A stretch of 42,274 nt of DNA from Theionarchaea archaeon (GCA_018992685.1 JACVGT010000006.1:1-42274), one strand, 5' to 3'. Shown: positions 18,570 through 38,462, numbered from the stretch's first letter. Numbers and translations are program-made. Notes: a model not told the origin generated them from the letters alone.

Positions 18570-18600
18570 AGAATCACCACGTGATAGAAGATAAAGACTC

Positions 18601-18607: not shown

Positions 18608-18705
18608 TTTTTGTATTGAGTGATTTTCCAGGCGGTATCCCTCTACAAACGTAAATATTCCTTTTTTGGACTGATGCCTGGGGACACATCCCGCGTGCTC
18701 CAGAG

Positions 18706-18824
18706 AAAAAGAGATGGGGGGCTCGAATGAGCCCCTTGTGATTTGCTCCAGCCAACCATTGACGCCTTCACAGCACAGGAATCTTTCCAGTTCTCCAGCG
18801 CCTCCCCTTCTCAAGCTGGATATT
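18706..18824 (-). ncRNA. Candidate small RNA (unclassified)
   Basis: TTTAAATA at 18851-18844; UCCAGC/GCUGGA pairing; terminal GGGGCUC-AUUC-GAGCCCC hairpin then U-rich tract; no convincing ORF. Confidence 0.4.
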
Positions 18825-19287
18825 ATTCCTAGTGAGTTTGTACTATTTAAAGATTTCTGAAAGTCCGCTGCAGAAAGAAATATCCGGATTCTCCTCTATG
18901 GTTTTCTGTATTTTGGCTGCAAAAAGGCTGCTGCATGATTCATGATCTGTATAGTAGGTTAAAACATTGCAGCATTTCTTAATGCACGGGTGTGAAGAAC
19001 TTATGCTGCTTCACTTTCGCTGATGAAAGACAGCGTTGGTGCTGAAAGTCTGTGACATCCGTGCACCTGTTGATAGATTTCACGATGTACTTGCCCCAAT
19101 CAGGGAGGAGCAAAGCCTGTTCCCCATGTCACACACCTGCTGTTCTCCTGGTAATCGTGGTCCAGGAGGTGTCAACGAAGACTATTTAAATACCGGTTAC
19201 TCTTGACGGATGGTCTAAAAGCCCTTTCACCAAGTATTTCAAACATACCATTACTAGAAGACTAACACCAACTGAGGTGAAAAAAAG

Positions 19288-21666: not shown

Positions 21667-21674
21667 GTGATTTC

Positions 21675-22121
21675 ATGGATGTGAGGACCCATACAGCACT
21701 CCATGTGCTGAAGGGAGCAGTCCAGAAGGTTCTTCATGTGGAGTGGACTGCAGGAGTATGGGTTGAAGGCCTGCATGGAAGACTTGTTGTCCAGACTGAC
21801 AGGAATCCTTCTCAAGACGAGCTGGAAGAAATCCAACGCGAGGCCAATGAGAAGATACAAGAAGATCAGGAGATTGAAGAATACACACTGGATAGAAACG
21901 AGGCAGAGAATCGCTGGGGAGATTCAATATATGATTTATTTCCTCTTCCCGAGGGGATTACCACCGTGACGGTGATGTGCATTCCAGGCTGGAACGTCAA
22001 CTGCTGCAGGGAGAAACACACCAAAACAACGGGAGAGATTGGAAGAATCACAGTGAGGAAGTCCAGGTTCAGGAAAAATAAGAACCTGCTGGAACTCTCA
22101 TTTTATATTGAACCATATTGA
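21675..22121 (+). CDS. alaXS: Small AlaX trans-editing protein (AlaX-S)
   Basis: HTALH and CCREKH (HxxxH, CxxxH) Zn motifs, 148 aa; GGTGA RBS. Confidence 0.92.
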   Translation: MDVRTHTALHVLKGAVQKVLHVEWTAGVWVEGLHGRLVVQTDRNPSQDELEEIQREANEKIQEDQEIEEYTLDRNEAENRWGDSIYDLFPLPEGITTVTVMCIPGWNVNCCREKHTKTTGEIGRITVRKSRFRKNKNLLELSFYIEPY

Positions 22122-22176
22122 ACCAGGGTCCTAACTTCCAGGACTGACGGGTCTGTACCATACCTTGCACATGACG

Positions 22177-23730
22177 TTACTCCATTCTGCTGAACCGTCT
22201 TTTTCCCAGCAGGAGAACTGTGATTCCCACAACCCACATAACTGGAATGACGAAATAGAACACTCCGGTCTCACCGAAGGCAACCAGACTGCCAAGCACA
22301 AAGAAGGCTGACCCCTGAGCAGGTATCATCATGTTCATCATGAATTCACCACCTCGTTCGTCATAGGCAGGCTTCAACAAGAAAAGCCCCAGGGCTAGCA
22401 TGGTATGTGCTGCAACAAGTAGTATCACAGCTACCGTATACATGACACCTGCCATCAAGGTGGTCCCCGGTATCAATTTCACTGAAAGCACCATAAGTGT
22501 ACCCGCCACAACAGGAACAAGCAGCCACCCCTGGACAAGTCGTGTTTTGATCAGCTTCTCCACTCCAAAGGGGACTTTTTTATACAAAAAGAGTGTCTCT
22601 TTCCCCCGAAGCGTAACATCACTGGCAACTGCGACAGCCAGCAGTGGGAAAATGAAACTGCTCACCAGGAGGACAGGGAAAAGATCCTGTGGCTTCATCA
22701 AGAAAATGTTCATGAGTGCAGCGAGCGCTACGATGTAAACAATCCATGACAGGTTCTGAAACCTTCTCACGTAGATTTTGAATGTTGAAGCCAGGAGAAT
22801 ACCGAAAGGACCCGTTCCTCCGAGACGTTGGATAGTCCTGTAAAAGACACCATCTGGTCCGGCCCGTGCAGCAGTGAAGGTAGCAGTCTCCATGCTGTAC
22901 GCACGATCAGCCAGGTTCATACCGATCAAGAGGGAAGCTCCCAGAAAGAGAACGCTTCCTGCAAGCCGTGGCACGACATCGATCCCAACAGTCCCGGGAT
23001 GGGCTGCAAACTGCGTAATGATACCGGCTCCCCACGAGCTGGGAAACAATGAGAGTATGTCCTTGATCAGTGTGCTGGTTTTGGGATCTGCAAGTGCCCC
23101 AATCAAACCTCCTCCCATGAACGCGTACATGATGGCAACAAAGGGTACCACCAGGAGGAGTGATATGGCCTTGGCCACATCTTTGCTGCGGGATGTTCTC
23201 CCCAGCCTCGTTCTCAGAAGGGCAGCTATCACCGTGCCAATCCAGAGAGCAGATGTGAGCGTAATGACAAAGCTTACTACGATTATTGCTTTTTGCGCCC
23301 CACTCACTCCCAGGGGATCAAAAAGAGCCGTAATAAATCCTGTAATGATGGTGATCATCACGAGATAGAGGGGCAGCTCTCCCAGAAACTCTCCAAGGAG
23401 AATGTCACGAGGATTCACCGGAGCTGAGACCAGCAGTACCTGCTGTTCAGACCTGACGTCTCTCAACATAAAGGTAACAGGAAGCCAGATGAAGACAAGG
23501 AAAAACATCAGAAACAAAATGGGCACGAACGCCACAGCTGCCTGGGACAGGAAGAATGCGACCAGTTCACTTGTGAAGAGATCCACGATTGCCGGGGCAA
23601 TATACAAAACAAAGACTGCCAGAATCCCCAGTACCATGAAGGGGAAATACCTGCGTATGGATCGTATACTGCTGGTGCGAGCCCGATAGTCATTTCGTGC
23701 AATGACGAACCATTTATGTGACATTTTCAT
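22177..23730 (-). CDS. ABC-2 type exporter permease
   Basis: Many hydrophobic helices, APVNPRDILLGEF; overlaps the ATPase gene. Confidence 0.85.
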   Translation of the reverse strand: MKMSHKWFVIARNDYRARTSSIRSIRRYFPFMVLGILAVFVLYIAPAIVDLFTSELVAFFLSQAAVAFVPILFLMFFLVFIWLPVTFMLRDVRSEQQVLLVSAPVNPRDILLGEFLGELPLYLVMITIITGFITALFDPLGVSGAQKAIIVVSFVITLTSALWIGTVIAALLRTRLGRTSRSKDVAKAISLLLVVPFVAIMYAFMGGGLIGALADPKTSTLIKDILSLFPSSWGAGIITQFAAHPGTVGIDVVPRLAGSVLFLGASLLIGMNLADRAYSMETATFTAARAGPDGVFYRTIQRLGGTGPFGILLASTFKIYVRRFQNLSWIVYIVALAALMNIFLMKPQDLFPVLLVSSFIFPLLAVAVASDVTLRGKETLFLYKKVPFGVEKLIKTRLVQGWLLVPVVAGTLMVLSVKLIPGTTLMAGVMYTVAVILLVAAHTMLALGLFLLKPAYDERGGEFMMNMMIPAQGSAFFVLGSLVAFGETGVFYFVIPVMWVVGITVLLLGKRRFSRME

Positions 23731-24496
23731 CTTCCCTCCATGCCAGCAATTCGCTTTCTCGCACACCGCCGGTCAATGCAATAAAAGCTTCCTCTAATGT
23801 GGTGGAATTACTCTGGCTGATAATATCACTGACACTCCCCACGGCAATGAGCGTGCCCTGGTGAATGATTCCAATTCTGTCACACAGTTCCTCTACAATG
23901 GGGAGGATGTGACTGCAGAGGAAGATGGTCCTGCCGGCCTTTTGTGACAAGTCCTTAATCAAATCCTTTACCATTAAGGCTGCTCGAGGATCCAGGGTAG
24001 ACGTGGGCTCATCCAGGAATAAGATGGGGGGGTCATGGACCAGAGCTGCGGCAATGAGAACTTTCTGTTTCATACCTCTGCTGTATCCTTCCAGGAGGTA
24101 GTCACGTCTTTCGTCAAGTCCGAAAAGTGTGAGTAGATCATCTGCCCTGCGGGGTAATATATCGCCAGGAACGTCATATAGAGCTCCCATGAACTCCAGG
24201 AATTCGCGAGCACTCAATTTCTCGAATAATCCAGGTGATTCAGCAAGTAATCCGGTAATTCGTTTCACCTCTTGTTCCTGAGTGAGTATGTCAAATCCGT
24301 TTACTGATGCTGTTCCAGAGGTCGGTCTGATGATGCAATTGAGCAGGTTGACAGTGGTGGTCTTTCCGGCCCCATTTGGACCCAGAAGACCAAACGTCTC
24401 TCCCTCGTATACTGTGAGGTCAAGACTGTCCACTGCTTTGATCTCGCCCTTGCCATAGTACTTGGAGAGGGCTTTCGTAATTATGAGGGGCTTCAT
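23714..24496 (-). CDS. ABC transporter ATP-binding protein
   Basis: GPNGAGKTT, YSRGMKQ signature, LFLDEPT, SH switch; start at MKPLII. Confidence 0.96.
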   Translation of the reverse strand: MKPLIITKALSKYYGKGEIKAVDSLDLTVYEGETFGLLGPNGAGKTTTVNLLNCIIRPTSGTASVNGFDILTQEQEVKRITGLLAESPGLFEKLSAREFLEFMGALYDVPGDILPRRADDLLTLFGLDERRDYLLEGYSRGMKQKVLIAAALVHDPPILFLDEPTSTLDPRAALMVKDLIKDLSQKAGRTIFLCSHILPIVEELCDRIGIIHQGTLIAVGSVSDIISQSNSTTLEEAFIALTGGVRESELLAWREDENVT

Positions 24497-24824
24497 AATG
24501 GCCCCCGTCTCAGGGAGGTTTAAGAATGTTTCCCCCCTGGTCTTGGTTAGTCCTATGAATCGAGAACAGATACTCTGCAAGAGTCATCAGTGAAGGTCAG
24601 GGAATCCCGGGCTTTTCTGGGTGTGAGGGTGAAGTCAGAGGGAGGCTGATCGGGATGAAGCTGCCGTAAGGAACGAATGAATGAAGGGTTGCTGGCCAGA
24701 CAGTTATCGAACCGTTCTGAGAAACCTGTGAGAACCAGGAAGTCAATGGATGATAAGTCAGTTATTGAAGAACCCTTTCTTTCAAAGGAAACCAGTTTAT
24801 TAATCGTCAACTGATTGTCGTATC

Positions 24825-25358
24825 ATGAGGTATTCAGTTATTTTTCTAATCCTCCTGGTAATAGGCTGCCTAGAGCAGCAACCGAAAAACGGGAATGAAG
24901 ACATAACTCCTCTTGAGGATTTTTTTGTAATAGATTCGGGAGTGGTTCCAGATATTGACAGTGCTCAATGGACACTTGAGGTGACGGGACTGGTGGAGTC
25001 CCAGCTTGCCATCACATATGAGCAGCTGCTGCAGCTACCATCTGTGACTCAGGTTACATACCTGTTTTGCATGCCTGGTTATGAAGGAACAGGGGAGTGG
25101 ACAGGTGTCCCCCTGAGATACGTGCTGGAGAAGGCAGGATACACAAAGGATGCAGGGTCTGTGACGTTCTATGCTGCTGATGATTTCTACTCCAGTATCT
25201 CCCTGGAAAAAGCGCTGCAGGAGGATACCATACTGGCCTACAAGATGAACGGAGTAGTCCTTCCTAAAGAACATGGATACCCACTCCGTCTCGTTGTGCC
25301 TGACGAAGTAGGTTCCAATTGGGTCAAGTGGATAGTACGGATTGAAATAGTGGAATGA
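24825..25358 (+). CDS. Sulfite oxidase/MsrP-like molybdopterin-binding domain lipoprotein
   Basis: WTLEVTGLV, LFC (Mo ligand Cys), WTGVPL, HGYPLRLVVP, VKWI; lipobox LVIGC; TTTATTA at 24796-24802. Confidence 0.88.
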   Translation: MRYSVIFLILLVIGCLEQQPKNGNEDITPLEDFFVIDSGVVPDIDSAQWTLEVTGLVESQLAITYEQLLQLPSVTQVTYLFCMPGYEGTGEWTGVPLRYVLEKAGYTKDAGSVTFYAADDFYSSISLEKALQEDTILAYKMNGVVLPKEHGYPLRLVVPDEVGSNWVKWIVRIEIVE

Positions 25359-25494
25359 AGCACCCGATCACCGGGTCTCTTGAGGGTTCTTTCACACATT
25401 CACACAGAAACCTTCATAAGGGCGTACATTCAACATCATCAGATGGGTTGGGGAGTGAGGGTCGAAGCATTCCTTGAGATAGGGAGGTTGAATC

Positions 25495-27057
25495 ATGATG
25501 AACCGTAATGTGAAGAGGGCTTCAATCCTGTTTGTGTTGGTGCTGGGCGGTATCCATCCTATTTTCAGTACAGATCCTATCAAGGTTCTCGTTGATGAGT
25601 CTAGGATTGACATGGTAACAAACCCGGAACAGTGGATGATTGATATCCTGGAGGCTATCGGGGTTGAGTTTGAAGAGATCGAGGACCCCCGGTGTTCATT
25701 TGAGAACACGGTGGAGGGGTTTGGATTCGGAACTGCTGCAGAAAGGCTCAGAAGTGAATTCTCGCTGAGCCTCAGGAAATCAGGGCGGCTTGACTACTCG
25801 ACCCTGAAGAAGTATGATGTTCTTGTCATAACTTCTTTCAGTGAACGGTATTCTTCTCAGGAAGCAGAGGCCATTCGACAATTTGTAGAAAATGGAGGAG
25901 GGCTGTTTCTCGCTGCGGACTATAGTGCGCCAAATAACAGCGTTTCCGCGGTGTTTGACGTTTCTTTTCCTTCAAACATAAATATCCTGGATAAGAATGA
26001 CAAGAGTTCCTCTAATTGGAGAATCTATATAGATGAATTTGGATCTCATCCAATAACAGAAGGTATAGATCAGATTCTCCTGGATGATGGAGTTCCAATT
26101 GACAAGTTTGAGTATGGAGAGGTTCTTGTCAGAACAAGCGAAACCTCGTGGGCAAACAGAACAGACTTCGGAGCCTTCTATGACGAAGACGCAGAGGAGA
26201 AAAAAGGCCCGTTCGATGTAGTTTTGGCGCAGTCAGTAGGAGAAGGAAGAACAGTCATCTTTGGAGGCAGTGACAGTTTCATCAATTCTGTCGTGGATGA
26301 AGATGACCAGCAGAATCTGGATTTTCTCGTGAACGCTATACGATGGTTGGGGGAACCCGGAGGACCATATAGGCAATACGCAATGAGGAACCAGCAGGCA
26401 CAGCAATTAATGTCTGAAGCAACATCTCTCTTTGACAGCCATAGCTTTTCAGCTGCCAAGAAGAAATTCCAAGATGTAATTGACCTGTACACGGAATCAA
26501 ATGAGATTTACGCCAATGTAGAAGCTCAAGAAAGAATCCTGGAGGCAGAAAAGTTTTCTGCCTACTGTGAGACAGGCATGGAAGCTGACACGCTCTTTGA
26601 CGGAGCCCTAGGACTGTATCAGGAACGGCACCTTGAAGATGCTGTTGCAGAGTTCGAGAGGGCTCAGTCATTGTACCGGGACATTTCATATGAGGCACGA
26701 GTGTCAGAGTGCAGTTCACAGATTGAAGAATGTCAGCGACTGATGACTGTGCAGGAGGAAGCTGCCAGCTTGTTCAGCCAGGGACAGACCGCGCTCGAGA
26801 CGGGTTCCAGTGGATTCAGCGCTGCAGGCTATGAGAAGGCACAATCCCTGTTCGAACAGGCCAGGTCCAGGTGGCAGGAGTATGGCGATGAATCCAAAGT
26901 GGCAGACTGTGATGAACGGATCGCTGAATGTGAGAAAGGGATTTCCGCTGTCAGCAGGAACAGAATCGTCCTGGGTGGTATCATTGCAGCAGTAGTACTT
27001 GTTGGCGTCGTTTTCGTAGTAGTAGTAAAGAGGAGGAAAAAACCAGAATCTGAATGA
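25495..27057 (+). CDS. Membrane-anchored secreted protein with GATase-like (DUF4350/GIFT-like) domain and TPR-like repeats
   Basis: KVLVDES, YDVLVI, FVENGGGL, HPITEGI, NAIRWL; three helical repeats; C-terminal TM plus KRRKK. Confidence 0.75.
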   Translation: MMNRNVKRASILFVLVLGGIHPIFSTDPIKVLVDESRIDMVTNPEQWMIDILEAIGVEFEEIEDPRCSFENTVEGFGFGTAAERLRSEFSLSLRKSGRLDYSTLKKYDVLVITSFSERYSSQEAEAIRQFVENGGGLFLAADYSAPNNSVSAVFDVSFPSNINILDKNDKSSSNWRIYIDEFGSHPITEGIDQILLDDGVPIDKFEYGEVLVRTSETSWANRTDFGAFYDEDAEEKKGPFDVVLAQSVGEGRTVIFGGSDSFINSVVDEDDQQNLDFLVNAIRWLGEPGGPYRQYAMRNQQAQQLMSEATSLFDSHSFSAAKKKFQDVIDLYTESNEIYANVEAQERILEAEKFSAYCETGMEADTLFDGALGLYQERHLEDAVAEFERAQSLYRDISYEARVSECSSQIEECQRLMTVQEEAASLFSQGQTALETGSSGFSAAGYEKAQSLFEQARSRWQEYGDESKVADCDERIAECEKGISAVSRNRIVLGGIIAAVVLVGVVFVVVVKRRKKPESE

Positions 27058-27282
27058 GCGACCCAAGGTTCTATGAAGTCATCGTTGACCCTCTTACAAG
27101 AAAATCACGAGAGTATTCCCTCTCACTGATTGCACGAAGAGGTGAGTGCAGAAAGAGAGAAAGAAATCACTACCTATTTATGGAGGGAATGTCATATGGT
27201 TTCATGGATCAAGGATATATCTTCATGAGGAAACCGTCTCCACAATTGCGGAAGCAAGAATCGAGTCCTGGGGAGGGATTAC

Positions 27283-28065
27283 ATGGCTAACTGGCTCGTC
27301 TTTCTGTGCCTTCTTGCAGTATCCATTCCAGGGATTGTTGTCACCGTTCCGGGTGCAGTTAGATCAATGGAAAGCAGGATAACGGAAAGTGCGCCGCCTG
27401 GCAAGAAGATACCCTCCATGAAAGTGATAGTATTTCTTGGCATACTTCAGAGCCTCGTACTGGTGTTGATTGCAGATGCTGCAGGTACTGTTACCACTCC
27501 TTCCATAGGGTTTTCTGCACCTTTCTTTGAAGCCCTGGTAACGGGCGAGAATATATGGGCCTCTCTACAACCACAGCTCCTTCCTTCTCTTGCGCTTGGG
27601 ATTGGTGGCGGGGCTTTCTTTGTGGCTTTGTACTACCTTGTGTTTCGGCCGCGCCTTGACGAACACACTGTTAGAACCATGGAAAAGCTGAGAATGGACC
27701 TCGGTCTCCCGGGACGGGTCTTGTATGGCGGCATCGTGGAAGAGGTCTTAACCCGTTGGGGGTTGCAGAGTGTTATAATATGGGTGGGGAGTCTTATTAC
27801 CGGTGTCGTCACTCCGACGACCATCTGGATCTCGATCATCATTGCAGGAGTCCTCTTCGGACTTGGACACCTTCCTTCGTACGTGGGAGCAGGGTGCAAG
27901 AAAACGCCCTTGTTCATAACATTCGAGATAACCCTGAATTTACTGGCTTCTCTCATCTTTGGCTGGTTGTTCTGGAACTATGGGTTGCTGTCCTCGATGA
28001 TTGCCCATGCGTTGTTCCATGTGGTCTGGTATCCCTTTGACGTTCGCAAATTCGCAGAACTGTAG
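27283..28065 (+). CDS. CPBP (Abi/CAAX type II) intramembrane metalloprotease
   Basis: EEVLTR, FGLGH, HALFH motifs; multiple TM helices; GGAGG RBS. Confidence 0.92.
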   Translation: MANWLVFLCLLAVSIPGIVVTVPGAVRSMESRITESAPPGKKIPSMKVIVFLGILQSLVLVLIADAAGTVTTPSIGFSAPFFEALVTGENIWASLQPQLLPSLALGIGGGAFFVALYYLVFRPRLDEHTVRTMEKLRMDLGLPGRVLYGGIVEEVLTRWGLQSVIIWVGSLITGVVTPTTIWISIIIAGVLFGLGHLPSYVGAGCKKTPLFITFEITLNLLASLIFGWLFWNYGLLSSMIAHALFHVVWYPFDVRKFAEL

Positions 28066-28080
28066 ATCGTCAGAATCCAC

Positions 28081-28093
28081 TTTTTTTTCTTTT
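28081..28093 (+). terminator. Oligo-T terminator candidate
   Basis: TTTTTTTTCTTTT 15 nt after the CPBP stop. Confidence 0.55.
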
Positions 28094-28257
28094 CTCAAGA
28101 ACTGATTGTCCCCTAGCAGAAGCTGCAGCCTCCCCATCAGTCACGACTATGAGAGCGACTCTCTGAATGGGTTATATCCTGCCCTGTTGTTCGAGGTCGT
28201 GAACGGTGCAACATGTGAGGAGTCAATCTTTTTATTGGCATTCGCCTCCTTTTGGGC

Positions 28258-28866
28258 ATGGTAGTAACCTTCTTCATACAAGGGTTCCTTATCGGTGTTG
28301 CAATCGCGGCTCCAGTTGGCCCTATTGGCCTTCTCTGTATCCAGCGGACTCTTTCTGAAGGATGGATTTCAGGGTTCGTCTCAGGGATGGGAGCTGCCAC
28401 TGCTGACGCCGTGTACGGGTGCATTGCTGGGTTTGGAGTAACAGTCGTCTCATCTTTCTTGGTCAGTCAGCAGATGCTACTGCGATTATTCGGTGGTGCA
28501 TTCATTATTCTCTTGGGTGGCAGGATCTTTGTTTCACCACCTGCAGAAAAGGCAGCTGTTCAAGGAGGGGGGAGTCTCATTACACGCTATGGTTCTACTC
28601 TTGTTTTAACACTCACCAACCCTATGACCATTCTTTCGTTTGCAGCCATTTGTGCGGGAGTGGGGATTTCTACCTATGGGGATGCAGGGCTGTTGGTTCT
28701 GGGGGTTTTCATGGGATCAGCAGTGTGGTGGTTCACGCTAAGTGGGTTGGTTCATCTGGTTCGATCTCGGATTGATCAGAAGAGAATGCAGTGGATAAAC
28801 AGGGCTTCTGGTGCTATTCTGATGGGAATTGGTGTTGTTATCCTTTTCAGCCTGGATGCTTCTTAG
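28258..28866 (+). CDS. LysE family translocator
   Basis: IAAPVGPIGLLCIQRTL, GAATADAVY, LTLTNPMTI, GSAVWW. Confidence 0.95.
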   Translation: MVVTFFIQGFLIGVAIAAPVGPIGLLCIQRTLSEGWISGFVSGMGAATADAVYGCIAGFGVTVVSSFLVSQQMLLRLFGGAFIILLGGRIFVSPPAEKAAVQGGGSLITRYGSTLVLTLTNPMTILSFAAICAGVGISTYGDAGLLVLGVFMGSAVWWFTLSGLVHLVRSRIDQKRMQWINRASGAILMGIGVVILFSLDAS

Positions 28867-28892
28867 AATGAGGGGGTAAACTCGGTACTCAG

Positions 28893-29159
28893 TAGCATGA
28901 AAATGAGAAGATAAACCCTGAAAAGGACGGGATTACAGGGATGAGATACTGTTTCAATGTTTCTGTGAAAAGATTCTCGGGGTACCCAGCGGTACCTTTA
29001 TATGGTAATACTAGGATGAAGGCGCGGGTGAGACCCTTGAGAGATGAAAAGATGCACAAGAAAGGATCAATTGTTGTAGTATTGATCCCATATCTGTTAA
29101 ATTCTTCAAATGAAGACGACGCTGTATCACCCTTGGAGCTGGAATGTTGGAGGTGATGA
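28893..29159 (+). repeat. Duplicated promoter/leader cassette, copy 1
   Basis: About 90% identical by manual alignment to 30395-30663; TTTATAT 28997-29003; ends in the RBS of the M50 gene. Confidence 0.95.
29052..29156 (+). CDS. Candidate 34-aa leader peptide, copy 1
   Basis: MHKKGSIVVVLIPYLLNSSNEDDAVSPLELECWR; frame and stop kept in copy 2. Confidence 0.35.
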   Translation: MHKKGSIVVVLIPYLLNSSNEDDAVSPLELECWR

Positions 29160-29160
29160 T

Positions 29161-30324
29161 ATGCTTGAAACACCCCTTCTGTTGTCCCTTGCGAGCCTTT
29201 CGATGGCTCTAGTCAGCATAGCAATGTCAGTATGGGTCCTGACAAACCGTGAGGCACAACAGACCGAGGAACATCTCATTATGCCTAGAGACTTCATTCC
29301 TTGGTCTGAAATTGACTCAATAGATCTTAGACACAGCAAATCAAAGCCTAGGTGGCTGACTCTGTCTCTCAAAAACAAAGAAGAGAAAAAATACGACTTG
29401 AAGTTCTTCAGAAACCGGTGGGTTCTGGTCAGCTATCTGGACCAGATATCTGGAGAGAAGGGATTCACATTTTTCTCAGACATACCTGTTCCGCGACAAG
29501 AGGAACCGCTCGGTGCCTTGAGAACTGTGGAATACAAGGGGAAGGTGATACCCGATGTCAGTTTCCCCCCACGGATGAAACTAGCAGTATATGGATTCAT
29601 GGCTATTTTTGTGTTGGGATTATCCTATGTTTTCCTTGGAGTGGGGACCACGGCGCTTATTGCCATTGTGCTGATGGTACACGAGGCTGGTCATCTTGTG
29701 GCTTCAAGACTCGTGGGCCTGAAGCTGGCACTTTCGTCGCTCCTCCCGTTCGCAGGTGTGGGGACATGGACAAATCCATTTTCCTCGTCAGAAGCCGAAG
29801 CTGGGGTGGCCCTGGCAGGCCCAGTGGCATGTTTGGCCCTGTATGGAGTTACAGCATTGATCGATCCAGAACGCGGACTCTTCCATGAGGATGCGGTGAG
29901 AGGGTTATACTGGTGGATGGCCCTCCGTGGGCTTCCAATCGTCTTTCTAATAAATGTGGTGGATCTGTTGCCCATCTTCCCTTTGAACGGTGGAAAAATA
30001 CTGAAGGCAGTCCTTCTGAAAACAAGGAGAAATGCACTTGTAGTAACAGTAATTACCATGGTGGTCTGTGCAATCATGGGGATCGGGCAGAGGAGACTCT
30101 TCTTCTTTGCGGCCTTTGGCGTTGGTCTGTTTTGCCTAATGGCTAATAGTGGCATGTATGTCAACTGGAAGCGACTCAATGGGCCAGTGCCCGACAATGA
30201 CCGTCCCCCTTTGTGGAAATCTGCTGTGACTCTCCTGCTCTGGATAGCAGTTGTGGTACTGTACTGGGTAGCCCTCCCTATGCTATCTCGATTTTTGCTG
30301 CACGTGGATTATGGGATTCACTGA
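29161..30324 (+). CDS. Site-2 protease (M50) family membrane protein with N-terminal bPH-like domain
   Basis: HEAGH, VALAGP, variant DLLPIFPLNGG; N-terminal TM plus IPWSEIDSI; ATG after GGAGGTGA. Confidence 0.85.
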   Translation: MLETPLLLSLASLSMALVSIAMSVWVLTNREAQQTEEHLIMPRDFIPWSEIDSIDLRHSKSKPRWLTLSLKNKEEKKYDLKFFRNRWVLVSYLDQISGEKGFTFFSDIPVPRQEEPLGALRTVEYKGKVIPDVSFPPRMKLAVYGFMAIFVLGLSYVFLGVGTTALIAIVLMVHEAGHLVASRLVGLKLALSSLLPFAGVGTWTNPFSSSEAEAGVALAGPVACLALYGVTALIDPERGLFHEDAVRGLYWWMALRGLPIVFLINVVDLLPIFPLNGGKILKAVLLKTRRNALVVTVITMVVCAIMGIGQRRLFFFAAFGVGLFCLMANSGMYVNWKRLNGPVPDNDRPPLWKSAVTLLLWIAVVVLYWVALPMLSRFLLHVDYGIH

Positions 30325-30394
30325 CAGAAAACTCCATGAAGAGAGAGAGGGCAGATCACTGCAACTTGCCTGTCTTCTCTTTTTTTTCTTTTCA

Positions 30395-30663
30395 TAGTAT
30401 GAAAATGAGAAGAGAAACCCTGAAAAGGACGGGATTATAGGGATGAGATACCACGTATCTACGTTTTTGTGAAAAGATTCTCAAGGGACTCAGCGGTACT
30501 TTTATATGGCAATACTGGTACAAAGGCGTGGGTGATACCCTTGAGAGATGAAAAGATGTACAAGAAAGGATCAATTGTTGTAGTATTGATCCCATATCTG
30601 TTAAATTCTTCAAATGAAGACGACGCTATATCACCGCTGGAGCTGGAATGCTTGAGGTGATGA
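30395..30663 (+). repeat. Duplicated promoter/leader cassette, copy 2
   Basis: Direct repeat of 28893-29159; TTTATAT 30501-30507; ends in the RBS of the RHS gene; preceded by an oligo-T tract. Confidence 0.95.
30556..30660 (+). CDS. Candidate 34-aa leader peptide, copy 2
   Basis: MYKKGSIVVVLIPYLLNSSNEDDAISPLELECLR. Confidence 0.35.
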   Translation: MYKKGSIVVVLIPYLLNSSNEDDAISPLELECLR

Positions 30664-30664
30664 A

Positions 30665-33600
30665 GTGAGAACATTGAAAACAAGTATGCTGGTGGTTGTA
30701 CTGTTTGTAGGATACATTGCCAGCACTCAGGTCATGGGAACTCAAGAGAGCGTCTCTTCAGAGAAGGCACTGGCTAGTCAGGAGGGGCTAGGGAGAGAAA
30801 AAACGAGAGGCAAAGTATTCACTTTTTTGAAGGACATTGACTCCAAAGAACAAAAGCCTTTTTCAAAGAACGCTGGAAACAGGGGATTTTTCTCAGATGA
30901 AACTGAAGAACAAGGATTCTTTTCAGAAGGCAGTGAACCCATTTCTTCACTCTACATTGATCCCCGCCAACCATCAAATCCTACCATCAATCCTTGCACC
31001 AATATGGAGTTTGACTATGAAGCAACGTCGCCCTATTACAAGGCCTTATTCAGGGATGGGACACTTCGAATCTACGTCGCAGGGAACTACATTGAATTTA
31101 GACTGAAAGAGAATTACCTGACAGCAAAAGAAAGCACTCGCATTGCTGAGGAGCCTTCAGTCAAGGAGAACTGTCTCTCAGTTAGTGAAAATACCATATC
31201 CGTCTCCGAGATTTTCGAAGCCATCGATCTCTCCTACAGAGTTGGAAGCTCTCAGATTGAGGAAGCTCTGACTGTCAAACAATTCAGGTCTATCGAGAGG
31301 CTCATATACGAGATTTCCTGGGAAGGACTCACACCAGAGGTTCAGGACGACGGTTCCATCATCTTCTCCGGTGACAAACCGCTCTTGGTGATCCTGCCCC
31401 CCTCCATGACTGACGCTCAGGGAGATGAATGCCGTGATCTTCATTACGAACTGATAGAGACAGAGAACGGGCATGAACTGCACAAGGTTGTGGATGAAAA
31501 AGGGGTGGAGTGGCTACAGCATGCGCACTTTCCTGTGGTACTAGATCCTCTGGTCGAAACCATTGAAGATGCATGGGAATCATCTGGGTTCACACCATAC
31601 GGGAAATACTTCGACAACTTCCAAGAACATGTCAACATTCTGAATGGTCATCTCATCGTATCACAGACGGATCTTGATATTCCAGGAAGAGGTCTGGACC
31701 TTGTGATATCGAGGATATATGAGACACCAGCTGTATTTTATCAGGCAGAGCCCTATGATTATACAGCACCACCTGTGAACGTCGGAATAGGATGGCGACT
31801 GGATTTTCCCTATGTCGGTGAAGAGTACCTCTACTCATGGGGCGGAGGAATATACAAGATTGAATGGTCAGGCGATACGTTCACGAACCATACCGGCAGC
31901 CACTTTGTTCTCGTGAAGAACGCCGACAACACGTACACACTGACAGGGGCAAACGGTACGGTATGTGAATTCGACACTACTGGTAAGATAACACACATGA
32001 GAGATTTGGACCAGAATACTATAACGTTCAATTACACCAGCGGAACTCTTACAAGCATCACTGATACCATCGGACGTACAGCTACTCTCAGCTACTCTGG
32101 CGGGTACTTGTCTGCAATTTCGTACAATGGTACTGTGATTGAATATGGAATCAATGGCTACGGCAACCTGGTTTGGGTGGACGATGTCCTGGACAGGAGA
32201 ACAACCTATAGCTACGACTCGGGGTGGACTGAGTGGTTCTACTATGGGTCAGGATACGCTCTGAAGGAGAATCTCTACCTGCTCACGCAAATAGGCTATC
32301 CCACAGGAGGTTACTCTCAATATGAATACGACAGGTTCTCTTACAATGACCTCTATGGCGGCAGTTCCTGTCTTGACTACTACAAGTACTTCGCGACAGA
32401 TCAACGAGTCTATGAAACGACCCAGGCAAGGCACAACGTGTACTCTTTTTACGGAAACTTCGACATCATCAGCGATTGTGATGTGACAACAAAGGACGAG
32501 TATGACATAACGCAGGGACTGTATGACTTCTCTCTGGATACATCCAGTGGCCTGGTTGTCCAGATGGCTCTTGAGAACGCATCACAGGCAACAATACGGA
32601 AATATGCATTTACATATAGTTCACAGAAACAGCTCAAAGAGGTGGAAGTCTACAACGACGGGGCAACTCTGTCGTACGTCAAATACTATGCCTACGATGA
32701 CTGGGGCAACCTGATATACTCAAAGGATCCAGAAGGGCACGAAGAATTCTTCTCCTATGCACATACGTCCACCTCAGGGTTCTTTGTTAATTACAGTGGA
32801 ACAGTGGTTCAGACCTTCACCAATGCGTTCTCAAATGACCCTGTGCCGGACTCCGTTCACACGGTCTTAATAGGCATGGCAGAGAAACAAGATGGTACCC
32901 ACGTAAGGGAAACCTACTTCGAGTACGATTCTGAGGCTCATCCAACACAGGAAAAGAGTTCCTTTGGAGCCTACACTACCTGGCTGACGGTTTCAGGTAC
33001 CTTCAATGAGAAGACTGGATCAACGAGCTTTCCTGTTGATCTGACAGGTCACACAGTGGTTGGAAATGCAGTCCTACGGATTGCAGGACTGCCTTCTGAC
33101 GATACGTATACAGAGACCCATTCAGTCCAATGTAACACCAACCCCTCTGTTCAATGTACGTGGAACGGTGGATACTGGTTAGGCAAATACTACAGTGTAT
33201 TGTGGATGTTCTGTAGCTTTCCTCTGGATTGTGACAGTGGAAGAGTCTCTATTGGTCCTTTCGTTCATTACCCTGGAACCTTTGGATACCAGAGTTACAC
33301 GACGAATCCAAGCCTAGGAGGAAAATCCAACTCGTTTGCCGTTACGACATACTGGAAAGCATATCCTGCTGAGGTGCAGTATAACCTCGACGGTTCTGAT
33401 TGGACAACGGTAACCACGAATCTGAGGAATTCTGCAGCGCAGGTGGCAGTCCCCATCACAGATGGAACACATACCTTGAACTTCACTGAATCTTCATCGC
33501 TGAAAACAAAATTCTCGTGGACCTTGTACGTCCCCGTGGACACCACTCCTGAAACATACATCACAACCACAGCATATGACGCGTATGGCAATGTAGAGTC

Positions 33601-36214
33601 TGTCACAGACCCTGGAGGACACACAACGACCTTTGGGTATTCGGCTGATTATGGACATGCCTACTTGACGAGTATTACCAATGCGCTTGGACACACAGCA
33701 TCTGCAACGTATGATTCTTCGACAGGAAGGATTCTCTCTTCAACAGATCCAAAGGGGAATACCGTCGCCTTTGAGTATGACCTCATGGGCAGAATAACAA
33801 AACGTATCCATGCAGATCTTTCAGAGGTTGAAGCTGTCTACGACGATTCGAATCTCATTGTTACTATCTTTGATGAACTGGATCACTACACCAAGACGCG
33901 CTACGACAAGATTGGCAGGCTCGTGCAGACTGACTACTACTTGAATGATACGCTCTATGCCACAGAGGTCTTCACGTACAACTACCTGGACAAGCACGTA
34001 TCGTATACAGATCCCCTCCTTCAAACGTACTACAATGAGTATGATTTCCTGGGCAGGACAGTTAAAACCACAAAGCCTGATAGCACGTTCACGACAACGC
34101 AGTACGATGACACCAACAATGTGAAGACGGTTCTTGACGAGAATGAGCACAAGAAGCAGTACAAGTATGACTGGATGGGCAGACTGCTGTGGGTAAGAGA
34201 ATTCATTGATGAAACCACCTACTATCTCACCGAGAGTACCTACAATGAGACAGGAAACATCACATCCATAACGGATGCCAATGGAACCACCACGAGCTGT
34301 GAGTATGACGCTCTTTTCGGCATGACGAGAACTTTATATCCAGACAGCACAACGGAAATCTTTGCCTACGATGTCGTGGGGAATTTCACATCGTATACAG
34401 ATGCCAATGGAAACACCACGAGCTATCAGTACAATGCTGTCTCGCAGCTGATCTCAGTTGAGTTTTCAGACGAATCATCTGTGGAACTTGACTATGATGC
34501 AAACGGTAACCGCACCCTCATGGTGGATCCAGCTGGAACTTCAACGTATGTGTACGACAACAGGAACCGCTTGTGTCAGGAGACGAGGACTATCGACGGA
34601 ATAGCATACACTGTCGGGAGACAATTCGACATAGCCTCTCGCACAGTGGCCACAACGTACCCCGAAGGAACGACCGTCACTTTTGTATACGACGATCTCA
34701 ATCGACTGACTTCCATTTCAGGCTACGCTGACTTCACTTACAACGCGAAATCTCAGGTTGAGAGTGTTGCCTATGCAAATGGTGTTCAACTGAGTATTTC
34801 CTACGGACCGTGCTGCAGCCAGCCGGCACGATTTCTTGCAACGAAGAGCGGAGCCACTCTCCTGGATCTGCTCTACACCTACGATGACGCAGATAATATA
34901 CTGGAAATCGAGAAATACATCTTCAATCCCGAAACACAGGTGCTCGAGGACTCTGTTGATCAATACACGTACGACTGGCTGGATCGAATAGTGACAGCGT
35001 CAGGTGATTTTGGCTCGCTCTCGTACAGCTACGATTCGGTGGGCAACAGGACGTCACTCAATGGAACGCAGTACGTGTACAACTCAATGAGTGAACTTGA
35101 ATCCACCAGTGAAGGGACGAGCTTTGCATATGACCAGAACGGGAATCTGGTCAGCAAGACCAATACTCACGTGTGGACATATCAGTACGATTTCAGCAAC
35201 CGACTTGTGGAGGCTGGCTACGATGGACAGATGATTGGCCAGTATGTGTACGATGGAGACGGAAGGCGTGTCAAGAAGACAGAATGGTCAGAATCGATGC
35301 AGGTATTCCAGAGCAGGATATACGTGTACGAGGGCATCAGCGTTCTGTATGAGAAGAATGTTGACGCAGGAATGGAAGCACTTTATATCTATGGAGCAAC
35401 TGGGCGAATTGCTGAGAAAACGGATGATATGACATTCTATTACCACAACGATTACCTGGGATCACCGAGGATTATCACAGATGAGGATGGCGTTGTAGTT
35501 ACGGGGATAGACTATCTTCCTTTTGGGGAAAGTGAGTTGAAGGGGGAGTCTGAGGACTATCTGTTCACAGGAAAAGAGGAGGATGTGTCTGAGCTGTACT
35601 ATTTTGGTGCACGGTACTATGATCCAACACTTGGGCGGTTCATCAGCAGGGATCCTATTCGAGGAGTAATGAGTGACCCGCGTAGTCTGAATCGGTACAC
35701 ATACGTTCTGAATAACCCTCTGAAATACCGTGATCCTTGGGGAGAGAAACCGGCAGATGAAGAATGCAGTTGTGAGTCAGACGTTGACGAACTTCTAGAC
35801 TTGTTGGCTGCCGCCGAAAATCAAATCAAGGAATTTGAACATGACATTGAGGAGGCAGAGTATCTTCTTGAACAGTATCAGCCACGAGTAGAGTGGTGCG
35901 ATAAAGCGCGTGAAGCCACTAGTTTCAGTATCGTTCAGAGTGTTCCAGAACTTGTTCTGACACTCTTCATATGGTACTACATAGAGGCGCCTTGCTGGAC
36001 ACAGAGAAGTGGAGTAGATAATACGCATCAACGCATAAAAGATCTGGAAAGATCAATTTCAGACCTCAAAGAGGACGCAAATAAATTCAGAGCGGAAATA
36101 AAGAAGAGGTGCTCCTGCGCGCTTCCTGAAGATGATGGGTTAGGGTCTACATCTTCAGATGATGATTCTCCGTTGCCACCAGGAGCAGGTCGTCCCGACA
36201 TTTTTGAGTGCTGA
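30665..36214 (+). CDS. Secreted RHS/YD-repeat protein (polymorphic toxin-like)
   Basis: Signal peptide; DUF6531-like VNILNGHL...DLDIPGRGL; YD repeats; core LYYFGARYYDP..GRFISRDP and NPLKYRDPWG. Confidence 0.95.
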   Translation: MRTLKTSMLVVVLFVGYIASTQVMGTQESVSSEKALASQEGLGREKTRGKVFTFLKDIDSKEQKPFSKNAGNRGFFSDETEEQGFFSEGSEPISSLYIDPRQPSNPTINPCTNMEFDYEATSPYYKALFRDGTLRIYVAGNYIEFRLKENYLTAKESTRIAEEPSVKENCLSVSENTISVSEIFEAIDLSYRVGSSQIEEALTVKQFRSIERLIYEISWEGLTPEVQDDGSIIFSGDKPLLVILPPSMTDAQGDECRDLHYELIETENGHELHKVVDEKGVEWLQHAHFPVVLDPLVETIEDAWESSGFTPYGKYFDNFQEHVNILNGHLIVSQTDLDIPGRGLDLVISRIYETPAVFYQAEPYDYTAPPVNVGIGWRLDFPYVGEEYLYSWGGGIYKIEWSGDTFTNHTGSHFVLVKNADNTYTLTGANGTVCEFDTTGKITHMRDLDQNTITFNYTSGTLTSITDTIGRTATLSYSGGYLSAISYNGTVIEYGINGYGNLVWVDDVLDRRTTYSYDSGWTEWFYYGSGYALKENLYLLTQIGYPTGGYSQYEYDRFSYNDLYGGSSCLDYYKYFATDQRVYETTQARHNVYSFYGNFDIISDCDVTTKDEYDITQGLYDFSLDTSSGLVVQMALENASQATIRKYAFTYSSQKQLKEVEVYNDGATLSYVKYYAYDDWGNLIYSKDPEGHEEFFSYAHTSTSGFFVNYSGTVVQTFTNAFSNDPVPDSVHTVLIGMAEKQDGTHVRETYFEYDSEAHPTQEKSSFGAYTTWLTVSGTFNEKTGSTSFPVDLTGHTVVGNAVLRIAGLPSDDTYTETHSVQCNTNPSVQCTWNGGYWLGKYYSVLWMFCSFPLDCDSGRVSIGPFVHYPGTFGYQSYTTNPSLGGKSNSFAVTTYWKAYPAEVQYNLDGSDWTTVTTNLRNSAAQVAVPITDGTHTLNFTESSSLKTKFSWTLYVPVDTTPETYITTTAYDAYGNVESVTDPGGHTTTFGYSADYGHAYLTSITNALGHTASATYDSSTGRILSSTDPKGNTVAFEYDLMGRITKRIHADLSEVEAVYDDSNLIVTIFDELDHYTKTRYDKIGRLVQTDYYLNDTLYATEVFTYNYLDKHVSYTDPLLQTYYNEYDFLGRTVKTTKPDSTFTTTQYDDTNNVKTVLDENEHKKQYKYDWMGRLLWVREFIDETTYYLTESTYNETGNITSITDANGTTTSCEYDALFGMTRTLYPDSTTEIFAYDVVGNFTSYTDANGNTTSYQYNAVSQLISVEFSDESSVELDYDANGNRTLMVDPAGTSTYVYDNRNRLCQETRTIDGIAYTVGRQFDIASRTVATTYPEGTTVTFVYDDLNRLTSISGYADFTYNAKSQVESVAYANGVQLSISYGPCCSQPARFLATKSGATLLDLLYTYDDADNILEIEKYIFNPETQVLEDSVDQYTYDWLDRIVTASGDFGSLSYSYDSVGNRTSLNGTQYVYNSMSELESTSEGTSFAYDQNGNLVSKTNTHVWTYQYDFSNRLVEAGYDGQMIGQYVYDGDGRRVKKTEWSESMQVFQSRIYVYEGISVLYEKNVDAGMEALYIYGATGRIAEKTDDMTFYYHNDYLGSPRIITDEDGVVVTGIDYLPFGESELKGESEDYLFTGKEEDVSELYYFGARYYDPTLGRFISRDPIRGVMSDPRSLNRYTYVLNNPLKYRDPWGEKPADEECSCESDVDELLDLLAAAENQIKEFEHDIEEAEYLLEQYQPRVEWCDKAREATSFSIVQSVPELVLTLFIWYYIEAPCWTQRSGVDNTHQRIKDLERSISDLKEDANKFRAEIKKRCSCALPEDDGLGSTSSDDDSPLPPGAGRPDIFEC

Positions 36215-36236
36215 ACAGTGCGAACAGCTCTTCCTA

Positions 36237-36251
36237 TTTTTTTCTTTTTTT
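36237..36251 (+). terminator. Oligo-T terminator candidate after the RHS gene
   Basis: T7-C-T7 tract about 22 nt after the stop. Confidence 0.55.
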
Positions 36252-36611
36252 CCCTTTTGCCAATACTACTGATATCTGCATATTTTGTGGCGCCTCCAAA
36301 GGATTTGCAGAAATTACCTGCATGTCGATCTAGGACATATTTTCTCATCTGGGATATTTCGATGCCCCGGACTTGGACAGGATTAATCTGATAGCAACGC
36401 GAGACACTGCTTGCCAGCTGAATTATCTATGATCAACATCACTTTTTGCAGTTCCTGAGCAAAATTCATTTGGAGACACTGCATACCTGATCCTAGTTTT
36501 CCGTAGAATGGGAGTTGTACTCTTTCTAGAAGTGTCTAGGTTTGCACAAAGGAGATCACACCCAACTTTTATGAAGAGTAAAGACAAGGAAGAGATAGCG
36601 TAACACCCGAA

Positions 36612-37370
36612 TTGTGTAAGCAGGAGGTGAGACAAATCACTGAAAAGAAAATCATTCAAAGGCAAATCGCTGAAAGATCTTATGTGAGTGTTACGGTTGC
36701 GACTCCTACTTTGAGTAGAGCAGAGGACTTGATAAGAGGTACATCATATAATGGCAAAGCAGGTTCATATCCCTTATATGCATTCTTTCTCTATAGTGAT
36801 ATGGATGAAGATCTCGCTGAATTCATAAAAAAGAAAGGATATTGGCTCCATTGTTTGAGTGGCGACGATTGCCTTATCGGCGCATTCGAAAACCCAGAAG
36901 ACTGGGGGAGAGGGTGGAAAAATCACTGGCAGGAAAAGCTCGGTTTTTTGTATTGGTCAGCTCAAGAAGAATGGACGAAATTGGAGGCATGTGACCGAAA
37001 TCTAGCATTCTGTTTGGCTGACAATCTGGGGATTGAGAAAAATGCTTTGCCATGCATGGTCTTTGCAGAATCTTCATTCAGCACAAGAATCTTGTGTTTA
37101 CCCATAGTTGCTGACAGAGACGACTATCAAAAGTACTTTCAGGACATCTTCGCTGCCGTTAGTACTGCCGCAAAAGCAGATACTGGTTGCAGACTTCAGA
37201 CCCTTCAATCTGAATGGGGAAAGATCTGGAGAAAATGGATTCTTCCTAAAAAAATTGAAAATCTGTCAGAAACAATCCAAGAATGGGGTTCCATCATTAG
37301 GGAGACGACATGCATTATCATAGGTGTTGCAGAACCTCTCAAATTCCTTTTTGGAAATAAAAGCATGTAG
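36612..37370 (+). CDS. Hypothetical protein (possible thioredoxin-like fold); start uncertain
   Basis: Long ORF in AT-rich DNA; FFLYSDMD, LHCLSGDDC, LADNLGI...LPCMVF pattern. Confidence 0.65.
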   Translation: MCKQEVRQITEKKIIQRQIAERSYVSVTVATPTLSRAEDLIRGTSYNGKAGSYPLYAFFLYSDMDEDLAEFIKKKGYWLHCLSGDDCLIGAFENPEDWGRGWKNHWQEKLGFLYWSAQEEWTKLEACDRNLAFCLADNLGIEKNALPCMVFAESSFSTRILCLPIVADRDDYQKYFQDIFAAVSTAAKADTGCRLQTLQSEWGKIWRKWILPKKIENLSETIQEWGSIIRETTCIIIGVAEPLKFLFGNKSM

Positions 37371-37430
37371 TTTTGATTGGGCTTTCTCGAAGCTCTCAGA
37401 ATGATTGAAAGTTCTTCTTGATCATTTCAT

Positions 37431-37622
37431 TCAAGTCACCTTGCTTTCTTCAAATAGATCTCTTTCTGTGATCTCTATTCGTGTACCTTTAACAGCATAG
37501 ATATTCTCAATACTCCAGAAACAAGTATCTATGATATATTCATCGTCCCTATGTGAAGCAGCTATTTCTCTTATAATTGGTATGCCAATGAATATTCTTC
37601 TTGCCAAATATCCAGCCAGCAT
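37431..37622 (-). CDS. Small hypothetical protein or gene remnant
   Basis: 63 aa with GGTGA RBS, co-oriented 31 nt after the preceding gene. Confidence 0.45.
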   Translation of the reverse strand: MLAGYLARRIFIGIPIIREIAASHRDDEYIIDTCFWSIENIYAVKGTRIEITERDLFEESKVT

Positions 37623-37653
37623 TTTTTCACCTGTCCATTCGATCCACCGATAC

Positions 37654-38421
37654 CTAGACGCGTGAACCTACATCAATCATTTCCTTCTCTAAACATCTTG
37701 CCAAATATCTCATAATATCGATCACAACTTCAATAATCATCTCAGTTGTCATTCTTGGCGCTGGACCGGGATGTGGTCCCCCGTAACTAAGAAATCTACT
37801 CAAATCACTGGTCAGTTTCCTTAAATTCTTCAAAAACTCCTTATTCTCCTCTAGGTCTTTTAGTTCTATATTCTTTATGAATTTATCCCTGAGTATCTGA
37901 ACTGCATTTCTCAATGAGGTTCTTGCACCTTCAACATCATTTTCCTCCAGCCTTGAATGAGAATCAAAGAGATAGCTTGCAGCCTTATCCAAGATATCAT
38001 TCTTAACGACAAAGGATATCAACCTCTCTTCAATTCTTGACAGTGTTCCAGCAATTCTTTCTGAGCTGTAGTCAAGAGCTTTGATCTCAAAAGGAAAAAC
38101 AGGCTCACCGTTGTAGTCCACAACCAGGATTGAGATTGTGTAGTTTCTAGCCACATTGAGATCTAGTACATCCTTTTCAGGAAATGCTATACGGGGCACC
38201 CAGATTTTTTCCAGCATATCAAAGTAATTTTCTGGTTCTAGCTCCAATTTCCTCATGGGTTTGAATCTTTTTATCAGCTTGTTATTGTTATCAACAATCT
38301 CAATTATAAAAAACCTTAGAATCCCTCCTTTACTAATGAAAGGAAGTAATCGATATAGATTCTTTAGGTTTACGCAAAGACCTTCCTCAAATTCGATTCT
38401 CTCAGTCACAATAGCTGGCAT
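37654..38421 (-). CDS. Hypothetical protein with C-terminal HEPN-like helical domain
   Basis: AASYL...GARTSLRNAVQ...LSYGGPH...EMII pattern; AGGTGA RBS. Confidence 0.7.
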   Translation of the reverse strand: MPAIVTERIEFEEGLCVNLKNLYRLLPFISKGGILRFFIIEIVDNNNKLIKRFKPMRKLELEPENYFDMLEKIWVPRIAFPEKDVLDLNVARNYTISILVVDYNGEPVFPFEIKALDYSSERIAGTLSRIEERLISFVVKNDILDKAASYLFDSHSRLEENDVEGARTSLRNAVQILRDKFIKNIELKDLEENKEFLKNLRKLTSDLSRFLSYGGPHPGPAPRMTTEMIIEVVIDIMRYLARCLEKEMIDVGSRV

Positions 38422-38462
38422 GTTGACTCACCTAGTTTTACTATTGATGATTTGGGAGTAGT

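Follow-up and report, generated by a model that had tools for sequence, protein, structure and literature searches.

Introduction

WapA of Bacillus subtilis is a Sec-exported polymorphic toxin of the RHS/YD type. The Rhs proteins that have been studied release their C-terminal tips by self-cleavage at the DPxG end of the Rhs-associated core, and proteins of the CPBP/Abi group act in bacteriocin self-immunity. In archaea, polymorphic toxins of the RHS type have been described but are rare, Methanosarcina acetivorans being an example given in PMC3482391. Here we analyze an RHS gene of a Theionarchaea archaeon together with the genes preceding it, which encode an M50 (site-2 protease) paralogue, a LysE-family exporter, and a CPBP intramembrane protease. 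The window, i.e., the whole stretch of DNA that was analyzed, is the entire 42,274-bp contig C20 of this 3.03-Mb archaeal genome. A preliminary description of the window had proposed that the four genes encode a secreted RHS toxin and membrane-level immunity, the latter encoded upstream. Its observations were largely right, and the four genes are indeed open reading frames (ORFs) on the + strand belonging to the stated families (Pfam, NCBIfam). In the reading that we prefer, to which we give a probability of roughly 55%, the RHS gene encodes an exported protein of the RHS toxin family, the M50-like protein is its co-regulated accessory, and CPBP and LysE lie outside the system.

The window RHS resembles the Sec-exported RHS/YD toxins in its signal-peptide-like start, YD shell, DPxG core end, variable tip, and several paralogues. 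It differs from them in that the tip has no known toxin domain, no immunity gene is adjacent downstream, and an M50-like gene with the same promoter-leader is located upstream. With Tse5, a bacterial pore-forming Rhs toxin delivered to the membrane (PMC10684867), it shares an RHS shell and a tip thought to act on membranes in a non-enzymatic manner. Unlike Tse5, an effector of Pseudomonas type VI secretion, the window RHS has a putative Sec-type signal and a tip of sub-threshold hydrophobicity, and no sequence relation between the two was found.

A search of open-access texts found no paper naming RHS alongside Theionarchaea or Methanofastidiosa, nor any naming Rhs with both "immunity protein" and "site-2 protease". 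The RHS gene is a new member of the RHS kind, and its layout may be new as well, having no downstream partner, a degenerate site-2 protease gene upstream, and a duplicated leader. The theionarchaeal genome carries a whole family of RHS genes, a toxin type rare in archaea. Within this family, the window gene departs from the order of toxin followed by immunity, and has its leader in common with a conserved, protease-like membrane protein that is missing a catalytic residue.

Duplicated putative promoter-leader of the M50 and RHS genes

A 267-nt segment lies directly 5' of both the M50 gene (copy A) and the RHS gene (copy B), so that the shared upstream cassette reported in the preliminary description is real (Table 1). 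The copies differ at 26 positions in 267 nt, including one 2-nt indel, and hence are ~90% identical. A BLAST-based search located exactly two copies in the genome. None of 40 relatives carries a copy, and exact matches to the 47-nt core of the cassette are absent from the genome collection. The two copies form direct repeats with a period of 1502–1504 nt, which flank a single gene. Copy A starts 27 nt past the LysE stop codon with no run of T in between, and the copies end in GGAGGTGA/TGAGGTGA, a few bases 5' of the M50 ATG or the RHS GTG. A contig from an independent study (run X11, record 3, 97% alike) bridges positions 30231–31242 and thereby the end of M50, copy B, and the start of RHS.

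Based on general knowledge of archaeal promoters, we infer that the cassette is a promoter plus 5' leader and that the TATA-box-like TTTATATGG, identical in both copies, is a promoter element. The perfect palindrome GGATCAAT-N9-ATTGATCC is confined to the two cassette sites, as found by a whole-genome regex scan, and appears as a hairpin in the consensus fold; it may be either a hairpin or a regulator-binding site. The leader also contains a candidate upstream ORF of 34 codons, the stop codon of which (TGA) overlaps the M50 or RHS ribosome-binding site. Differences between the copies cluster at 28950–29032, and one run of 68 nt is identical. An identical run of this length occurred in 0.8% of 100,000 random placements (P about 0.008). 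Owing to the shared, duplicated promoter-leader, co-regulation of M50 and RHS is plausible.

Other signals were sought in the same region. Rfam gave no match at gathering score in the window, and matches in 28800–30750 were at chance level only (E 1.2–5). A scan for bacterial promoters and terminators, the models of which are ill-suited to archaea, did not rise above shuffled sequences. Minus-strand ORFs across the cassette were considered and rejected, the 94-residue frame of copy A breaking into two frames in copy B. In the consensus fold of both copies (29125–29158 and 30629–30662), UAUCACC pairs with the ribosome-binding sequence GGUGAUG, without statistical support. Such pairing could act as a switch that keeps the ribosome-binding site masked for as long as the short upstream ORF is untranslated.

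Architecture of the RHS protein and its paralogues

The RHS protein is composed of a signal-peptide-like N-terminus, an N-terminal domain shared with its paralogues, a shell, the Rhs-associated core, and a variable tip. The N-terminus (MRTLKTSMLVVVLFVGYIASTQVMG), in which the preliminary description had seen a signal peptide, resembles one, with basic residues and then a hydrophobic stretch at residues 1–26. The orthologue P0006, which is 82% identical to the window RHS overall and 77% over the first 330 residues, begins at the same N-terminal position. The YD/RHS shell matches PF05593 in six stretches and TIGR01643 with an E-value of 9.9e-25. The core, at residues 1617–1693, matches TIGR03696 (Rhs_assc_core, NCBIfam) with an E-value of 8.9e-21. 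By analogy with the studied Rhs proteins, the window RHS would be cleaved at the end of this core.

The 156-residue tip is the fastest-evolving part of RHS. It is 61% identical to the tip of P0006, versus 82% for the whole protein. In the contig pieces of the strain sequenced in run X11, the tip has 54 differences and four gaps in 625 nt, and the shell has 10–20 differences in 552–967 nt, the DNA differences being 8.6% in the tip versus 1.3–3.3% in the shell. The tip has no second copy in its own genome, and among 1.84 billion representatives it is significantly similar to its own cluster only (three matches at E ≤ 0.001, one at E ≤ 1e-10). Its AlphaFold model, built from a two-sequence alignment, has a mean predicted local distance difference test (pLDDT) score of 73.8 and displays two long antiparallel helices connected by a moderately hydrophobic turn. 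CxC pairs are present at both ends of the tip, and its acidic, proline-rich tail is disordered in the model. A Foldseek search with the model returned generic coiled-coil hairpins, including the receptor-binding hairpins of colicins, none of them at E ≤ 0.001.

The genome has at least six full-length RHS paralogues (on C20, which is the window, and on C23, C18, C7, C6, and C27), and additional fragments on contigs C22, C19, C15, C11, and C17. Nine of the RHS genes and fragments have the NPxxxxDPxG core end, followed by unrelated tips of 156–262 residues. Three paralogue tips (C27, C22, and C19) carry HExxH and are followed by genes for β-propellers (PQQ or PD40 repeats) anchored by a transmembrane (TM) segment; strong TM segments characterize the tips on C18 and C15, downstream of which small membrane ORFs are located. 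None of the paralogue tips has a Pfam match at E ≤ 0.001. Each such tip and the gene downstream of it look like a toxin-immunity pair, which is the usual layout, and a polymorphic-toxin architecture is supported for the window RHS too.

Downstream of the window RHS, the preliminary description had seen no clear immunity gene, and this holds. A terminator-like run of T comes directly after the stop codon. A hydrophobic ORF of 57 residues (36218–36391) is probably not a gene because related strains carry 1-nt insertions within it (at 36236 and 36238, in two runs). The next ORF (36612–37370, + strand) has no TM segment and would be soluble. It was not found in 40 relatives, resembles unnamed bacterial clusters by language-model features alone, and has a GC content of 0.39–0.42; it probably belongs to a low-GC block together with a STAND NTPase gene. 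PADLOC had zero matches for CPBP, M50, RHS, and the two ORFs downstream of RHS.

The M50 paralogue lacks a canonical zinc ligand

The M50 paralogue has an N-terminal TM helix, a β-rich domain of ~70 residues, and a multi-pass membrane core, with no PDZ or CBS domain detected. Like MjS2P, RseP, and SpoIVFB, it has a Pfam match above the cutoff, a HEAGH motif, and the multi-pass core. Unlike these proteases, it begins with the TM helix and β-rich domain, and its subfamily has LNG in place of LDG in all five members and RExxH in two of them. The AlphaFold model of M50 is unusably poor (pLDDT 42.6); residues 38–106 alone, which cover the β-rich domain, reach a pLDDT of 57–75.

Among 5.8 billion proteins, the subfamily is made up of the cluster of the window M50 and two others with 57–62% identity, five sequences in all. 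Its profile matches MjS2P (3b4r) with an E-value of 2e-4, and this alignment places the subfamily Asn (PLNGG) on the Asp of PMDGG. Specifically, the zinc-ligand Asp is replaced by Asn in the window M50 and in each of its orthologues P0003, P0004, P0008, and P0009. M50 paralogues on C9 and C1 of the same genome retain the Asp (P[LM]DGG). The first His of HExxH is lost as well in P0003 and P0009, which have RECGH. According to a review (PMC10202637), zinc is bound through the HExxH and LDG motifs, and mutations there lower activity. The five members are nonetheless identical in about 200 alignment columns, and M50 is therefore under constraint. From these alignments, M50 is probably a non-canonical, non-proteolytic membrane protein. 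Its proposed action as a site-2 protease on membrane peptides is thus doubtful.

The N-terminal TM helix and small β-rich domain of M50 also occur in two other proteins of the genome. A 209-residue membrane protein in the region C11:35837-41234 shares the N-terminal domain with 26% identity over 95 residues. A broken remnant of an RHS core (C11:40508-40663, with one TAA) is located 4 kb away, and genes for a C25 peptidase and an α/β hydrolase lie between the two.

CPBP and LysE belong to a conserved backbone

The CPBP translation shows EEVLTR, FGLGH, and HALFH, which we take to be the motifs of this family. Window positions 8907–28733 are collinear with contig C110 of the same-genus genome G001 at ~81% DNA identity, and the orthologues of CPBP and LysE are found there in the same order, with 88% and 77% protein identity, respectively. 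Collinearity breaks off within the 3' end of LysE (28733), where the G001 contig has a run of N, and the genes beyond it are unrelated. G001 and two further genomes (G002 and G003) have neither an orthologue of the window M50 (the best match, 32% identical, is of the type of the C9 paralogue) nor a match to the RHS tip; they possess other RHS genes. In an abundant metagenomic relative, a 13.9-kb contig spans CPBP and its neighbors, with no M50 or RHS at ≥80% likeness.

As CPBP and LysE are syntenic in G001, which has neither an M50 orthologue nor a match to the cargo, they are probably conserved housekeeping neighbors and bystanders to the M50-RHS pair. The cassette is absent upstream of CPBP and LysE, unlike M50 and RHS. 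CPBP is followed by a terminator-like run of T and the synteny ends in LysE; hence, the M50-RHS pair begins where the backbone ends. The adjacency of CPBP-LysE to M50-RHS is best explained by position rather than function, and the earlier view that CPBP and LysE belong to the system is not upheld. Nor does the supposed linkage of CPBP with a toxin recur: the CPBP-LysE pair of G001 is without M50 and cargo, and the five other loci with a full-length RHS gene in the window genome are all without an adjacent M50 or CPBP gene. Like the CPBP/Abi immunity proteins, and like the PrsW-type processing peptidases of polymorphic toxins (PMC3482391), the window CPBP is a membrane-embedded peptidase-fold gene near a toxin gene. 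Unlike those cases, it is a backbone gene, present without this toxin in G001, and two genes and a run of T separate it from RHS. Caution is due with adjacent "immunity-like" genes such as CPBP, which can be bystanders.

Relation of the M50 protein to RHS

The preferred reading can be stated as follows. In an archaeon that belongs to the Methanofastidiosia/Theionarchaea group, the RHS gene would encode a Sec-exported protein from the RHS/YD family of polymorphic toxins. Its tip, a fast-evolving 156-residue helical hairpin, would presumably be freed by self-cleavage of the core, and the freed tip would act on the envelope or membrane of a competitor. The M50-RHS pair sits at the start of a variable region, where the same-genus synteny stops. 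M50 is a diverged paralogue of the site-2 protease of the cell, having lost the canonical zinc-binding Asp, and M50 and RHS would most likely be switched on together via their common 267-nt promoter-leader, composed of the TATA-like box, the palindrome, possibly the short upstream ORF, and the ribosome-binding site. It is because the same promoter-leader precedes both genes that we regard the M50-like protein as a probable accessory of the RHS gene; the most economical guess at its role is a non-catalytic membrane binder for protection or handling. If the two do act together, the pair would represent a novel means of protection against, or handling of, a toxin directed at membranes, and M50 would be the first archaeal pseudo-site-2-protease with a function. 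Such a link agrees with both genes lying in the variable region past the synteny break, and with the rarity of both the M50 subfamily and the RHS lineage, which occur in the same archaeal group.

Several observations weigh against this reading. The M50-RHS pairing is seen in one species, i.e., the window and the 97% strain. For the genome of P0006, no M50 orthologue is present in the database, though the P0006 contig is 38 kb long. The contigs bearing M50 orthologues (38459, 18717, 6492, 7308, and 3109 bp) match no listed RHS-bearing contig in size, a weak comparison as the cluster tables give the longest contig only. M50 is nearly invariant (one difference in 595 nt) in the X11 strain, where the tip diverges by 8.6%, and a specific immunity partner usually varies along with its toxin. 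The tip has no recognizable toxin domain, its Pfam coiled-coil matches all being below the curated cutoffs and the Atlas giving none. The preliminary description had called the cargo membrane-seeking; one moderately hydrophobic stretch accords with this, but over 19 residues its Kyte-Doolittle mean is at best 1.47, which does not reach the threshold of 1.6 used for TM segments, and the membrane as target of the tip is a guess. As for the leader, its fold is no better than that of shuffled sequences (z -1.46), and with two copies there are no covariation or compensatory pairs. The upstream ORF differs at six positions between the copies, three synonymous and three non-synonymous, which are too few to call it coding and prove nothing in this respect. 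Finally, the run of N in the G001 contig is exactly at the end of synteny, so that the sequence after LysE there is not fully certain.

Some searches bear on neither side. Metagenome scans for the context of M50 orthologues with a protein query and an alignment query found nothing, and neither did a scan of the genome collection with the M50 alignment. Co-folding of M50 with the tip scored 0.00 against a mark of 0.32 and weighs neither way. Gaps in contig cover over M50 in runs X12 and X14 are uninformative.

The alternative that survives best, though an unlikely one, is that the link is incidental, local recombination having duplicated the promoter-leader upon the arrival of M50 or RHS at this variable place, with no functional relation between the genes. 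The location exactly at the synteny break would fit, and so would direct repeats flanking just one gene, the recombination-prone and multi-copy nature of the RHS genes in this genome, and the closest RHS orthologue, with which no M50 orthologue was found. Against this, the 68-nt core is identical and a 57-nt upstream block is conserved despite the diverged middle of the cassette, suggesting that both copies are under constraint or being homogenized; in addition, the M50 subfamily and RHS lineage are each very rare and restricted to a single archaeal group that they have in common. If M50 and RHS were unrelated, the locus would neatly illustrate how a promoter can be duplicated in a variable part of a genome.

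The proposal closest to the preliminary description, with CPBP and/or M50 as membrane-level immunity or processing factors for the RHS cargo encoded upstream rather than downstream, is doubtful and in our estimate slightly less probable again; taken by itself, a role of M50 as immunity or processing factor is improbable to a similar degree. The proposal draws on the co-orientation of the four genes, the cassette common to M50 and RHS, and the lack of a credible downstream immunity gene. The locus stands out in this last respect, the other RHS loci having membrane ORFs or β-propeller genes downstream. Precedents exist in that PrsW, a distant relative of CPBP, has been linked to the release of polymorphic toxin domains (PMC3482391), and the site-2 protease RseP is the receptor of LsbB-family bacteriocins (PMC10202637). 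However, CPBP and LysE are conserved in G001 without M50 and cargo, a run of T follows CPBP, neither CPBP nor LysE has the shared cassette, the zinc-ligand Asp missing from all five M50 members runs contrary to processing, M50 scarcely varies where the tip does, and no recurrence was found at the other RHS loci of the genome or with the closest RHS orthologue. What stands of the claimed toxin with upstream membrane immunity is the polymorphic-toxin architecture of RHS, with no obvious immunity gene downstream, and the shared promoter-leader, which makes co-regulation a fair supposition; CPBP and LysE as its parts do not stand.

A more specific and still more speculative version is that a degenerate site-2 protease, encoded upstream and tied in by the cassette, has been recruited as a membrane decoy or binder that protects the producer from its own RHS hairpin toxin. 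As with LsbB and RseP (PMC10202637), a helical toxin would here be the candidate partner of an M50 protein, and that precedent suggests how an M50-like decoy might work. It differs in that it concerns target recognition in Gram-positive bacteria rather than self-protection. If true, both the class of immunity protein and the arrangement of the polymorphic-toxin genes would be new, in archaea, and the decoy would be the reverse mirror of RseP as receptor of LsbB-type bacteriocins.

That RHS is instead a surface or cell-cell recognition protein with the hairpin as a structural or adhesive tip has very little going for it: the missing toxin domain, the missing immunity gene, and the generic coiled-coil hairpins from the fold search would suit it, but the complete Rhs-associated core with its cleavage motif, the fastest evolution being in the tip, and the sister tips with TM segments or HExxH followed by candidate immunity genes follow the polymorphic-toxin pattern.

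Other features of the window

Coordinates of the features are collected in Table 1.

Table 1. Features of the RHS locus; positions are those of the window unless a contig is given
Feature	Position	Strand	Evidence or remark
CPBP / Rce1-like intramembrane protease gene	27283..28065	+	Pfam PF02517, E 2.1e-10
Run of T after CPBP, terminator-like	28081..28094	+	Sequence reading; resembles the run of T after M50; putative function
LysE-family exporter gene	28252..28866	+	Pfam PF01810, E 2.2e-22; likely ATG start at 28258
Cassette copy A, putative promoter-leader before M50	28893..29159	+	Repeat families D1 and D3; alignment
Cassette copy B, putative promoter-leader before RHS	30395..30663	+	Repeat scan, genome search, alignment
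TATA-box-like TTTATATGG	copy A 28997..29005; copy B 30501-30509	+	Sequence reading; same in both copies
Candidate 34-codon upstream ORF	copy A 29053..29156; copy B 30557-30660	+	TGA stop overlaps ribosome-binding site of M50 / RHS
Perfect palindrome GGATCAAT-N9-ATTGATCC	copy A 29064..29088; copy B 30568-30592	+	Regex scan
M50 (site-2 protease) paralogue	29161..30324	+	Pfam PF02163, E 3.4e-07, 30.3 bits (cutoff 27.2)
Run of T after M50, terminator-like, directly 5' of copy B	30380..30393	+	Sequence reading; repeat D9
RHS/YD-repeat protein gene, 1849 residues	30665..36214	+	PF05593 RHS_repeat, E 1.2e-41
NPLKYRDPWG, end of Rhs-associated core	35714..35743 (residues 1684-1693)	+	TIGR03696; NPxxxxDPxG motif
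C-terminal tip, 156 residues	35744..36211 (residues 1694-1849)	+	No relatives beyond own cluster
Run of T directly after RHS stop, terminator-like	36237..36251	+	Sequence reading; strains vary by 1-nt insertions
Other full-length RHS paralogues	C23:69794-74923, C18:1995-7643, C7:30828-36524, C6:137469-143990, C27:62417-69289		

In run X11, a contig of depth 2.4 joins position 27492 to 36765 with 11 other letters between them. This joint reflects either a deletion variant that lacks the 3' end of CPBP, LysE, M50, and RHS, or an assembly chimera.

A tRNA scan found no tRNA in the window. Beyond the RHS locus, positions 36600–42274 form a low-GC block, with a GC content of 0.38–0.42 compared with about 0.47. 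The block contains two ORFs without a family, 36612–37370 (+ strand) and 37654–38421 (- strand), and a 1268-residue NTPase gene of nSTAND5 type (38463–42269, - strand) that reaches the end of the contig. It is probably a horizontally acquired, defense-like island.

Relative to G001, the window has two insertions, 25360–27281 and 11653–13054. The former is a 520-residue GldG-like ABC auxiliary gene (25495–27057), which is also skipped in the abundant metagenomic relative, where 263 other letters are present instead. The latter corresponds to a 463-residue gene at 11680–13071. The gene at 7502–10786 (- strand), by which the contig can be recognized as archaeal, encodes an MCM replicative helicase with an intein (NCBIfam MCM, E 8.1e-261; intein N-terminal region, E 3.4e-13).

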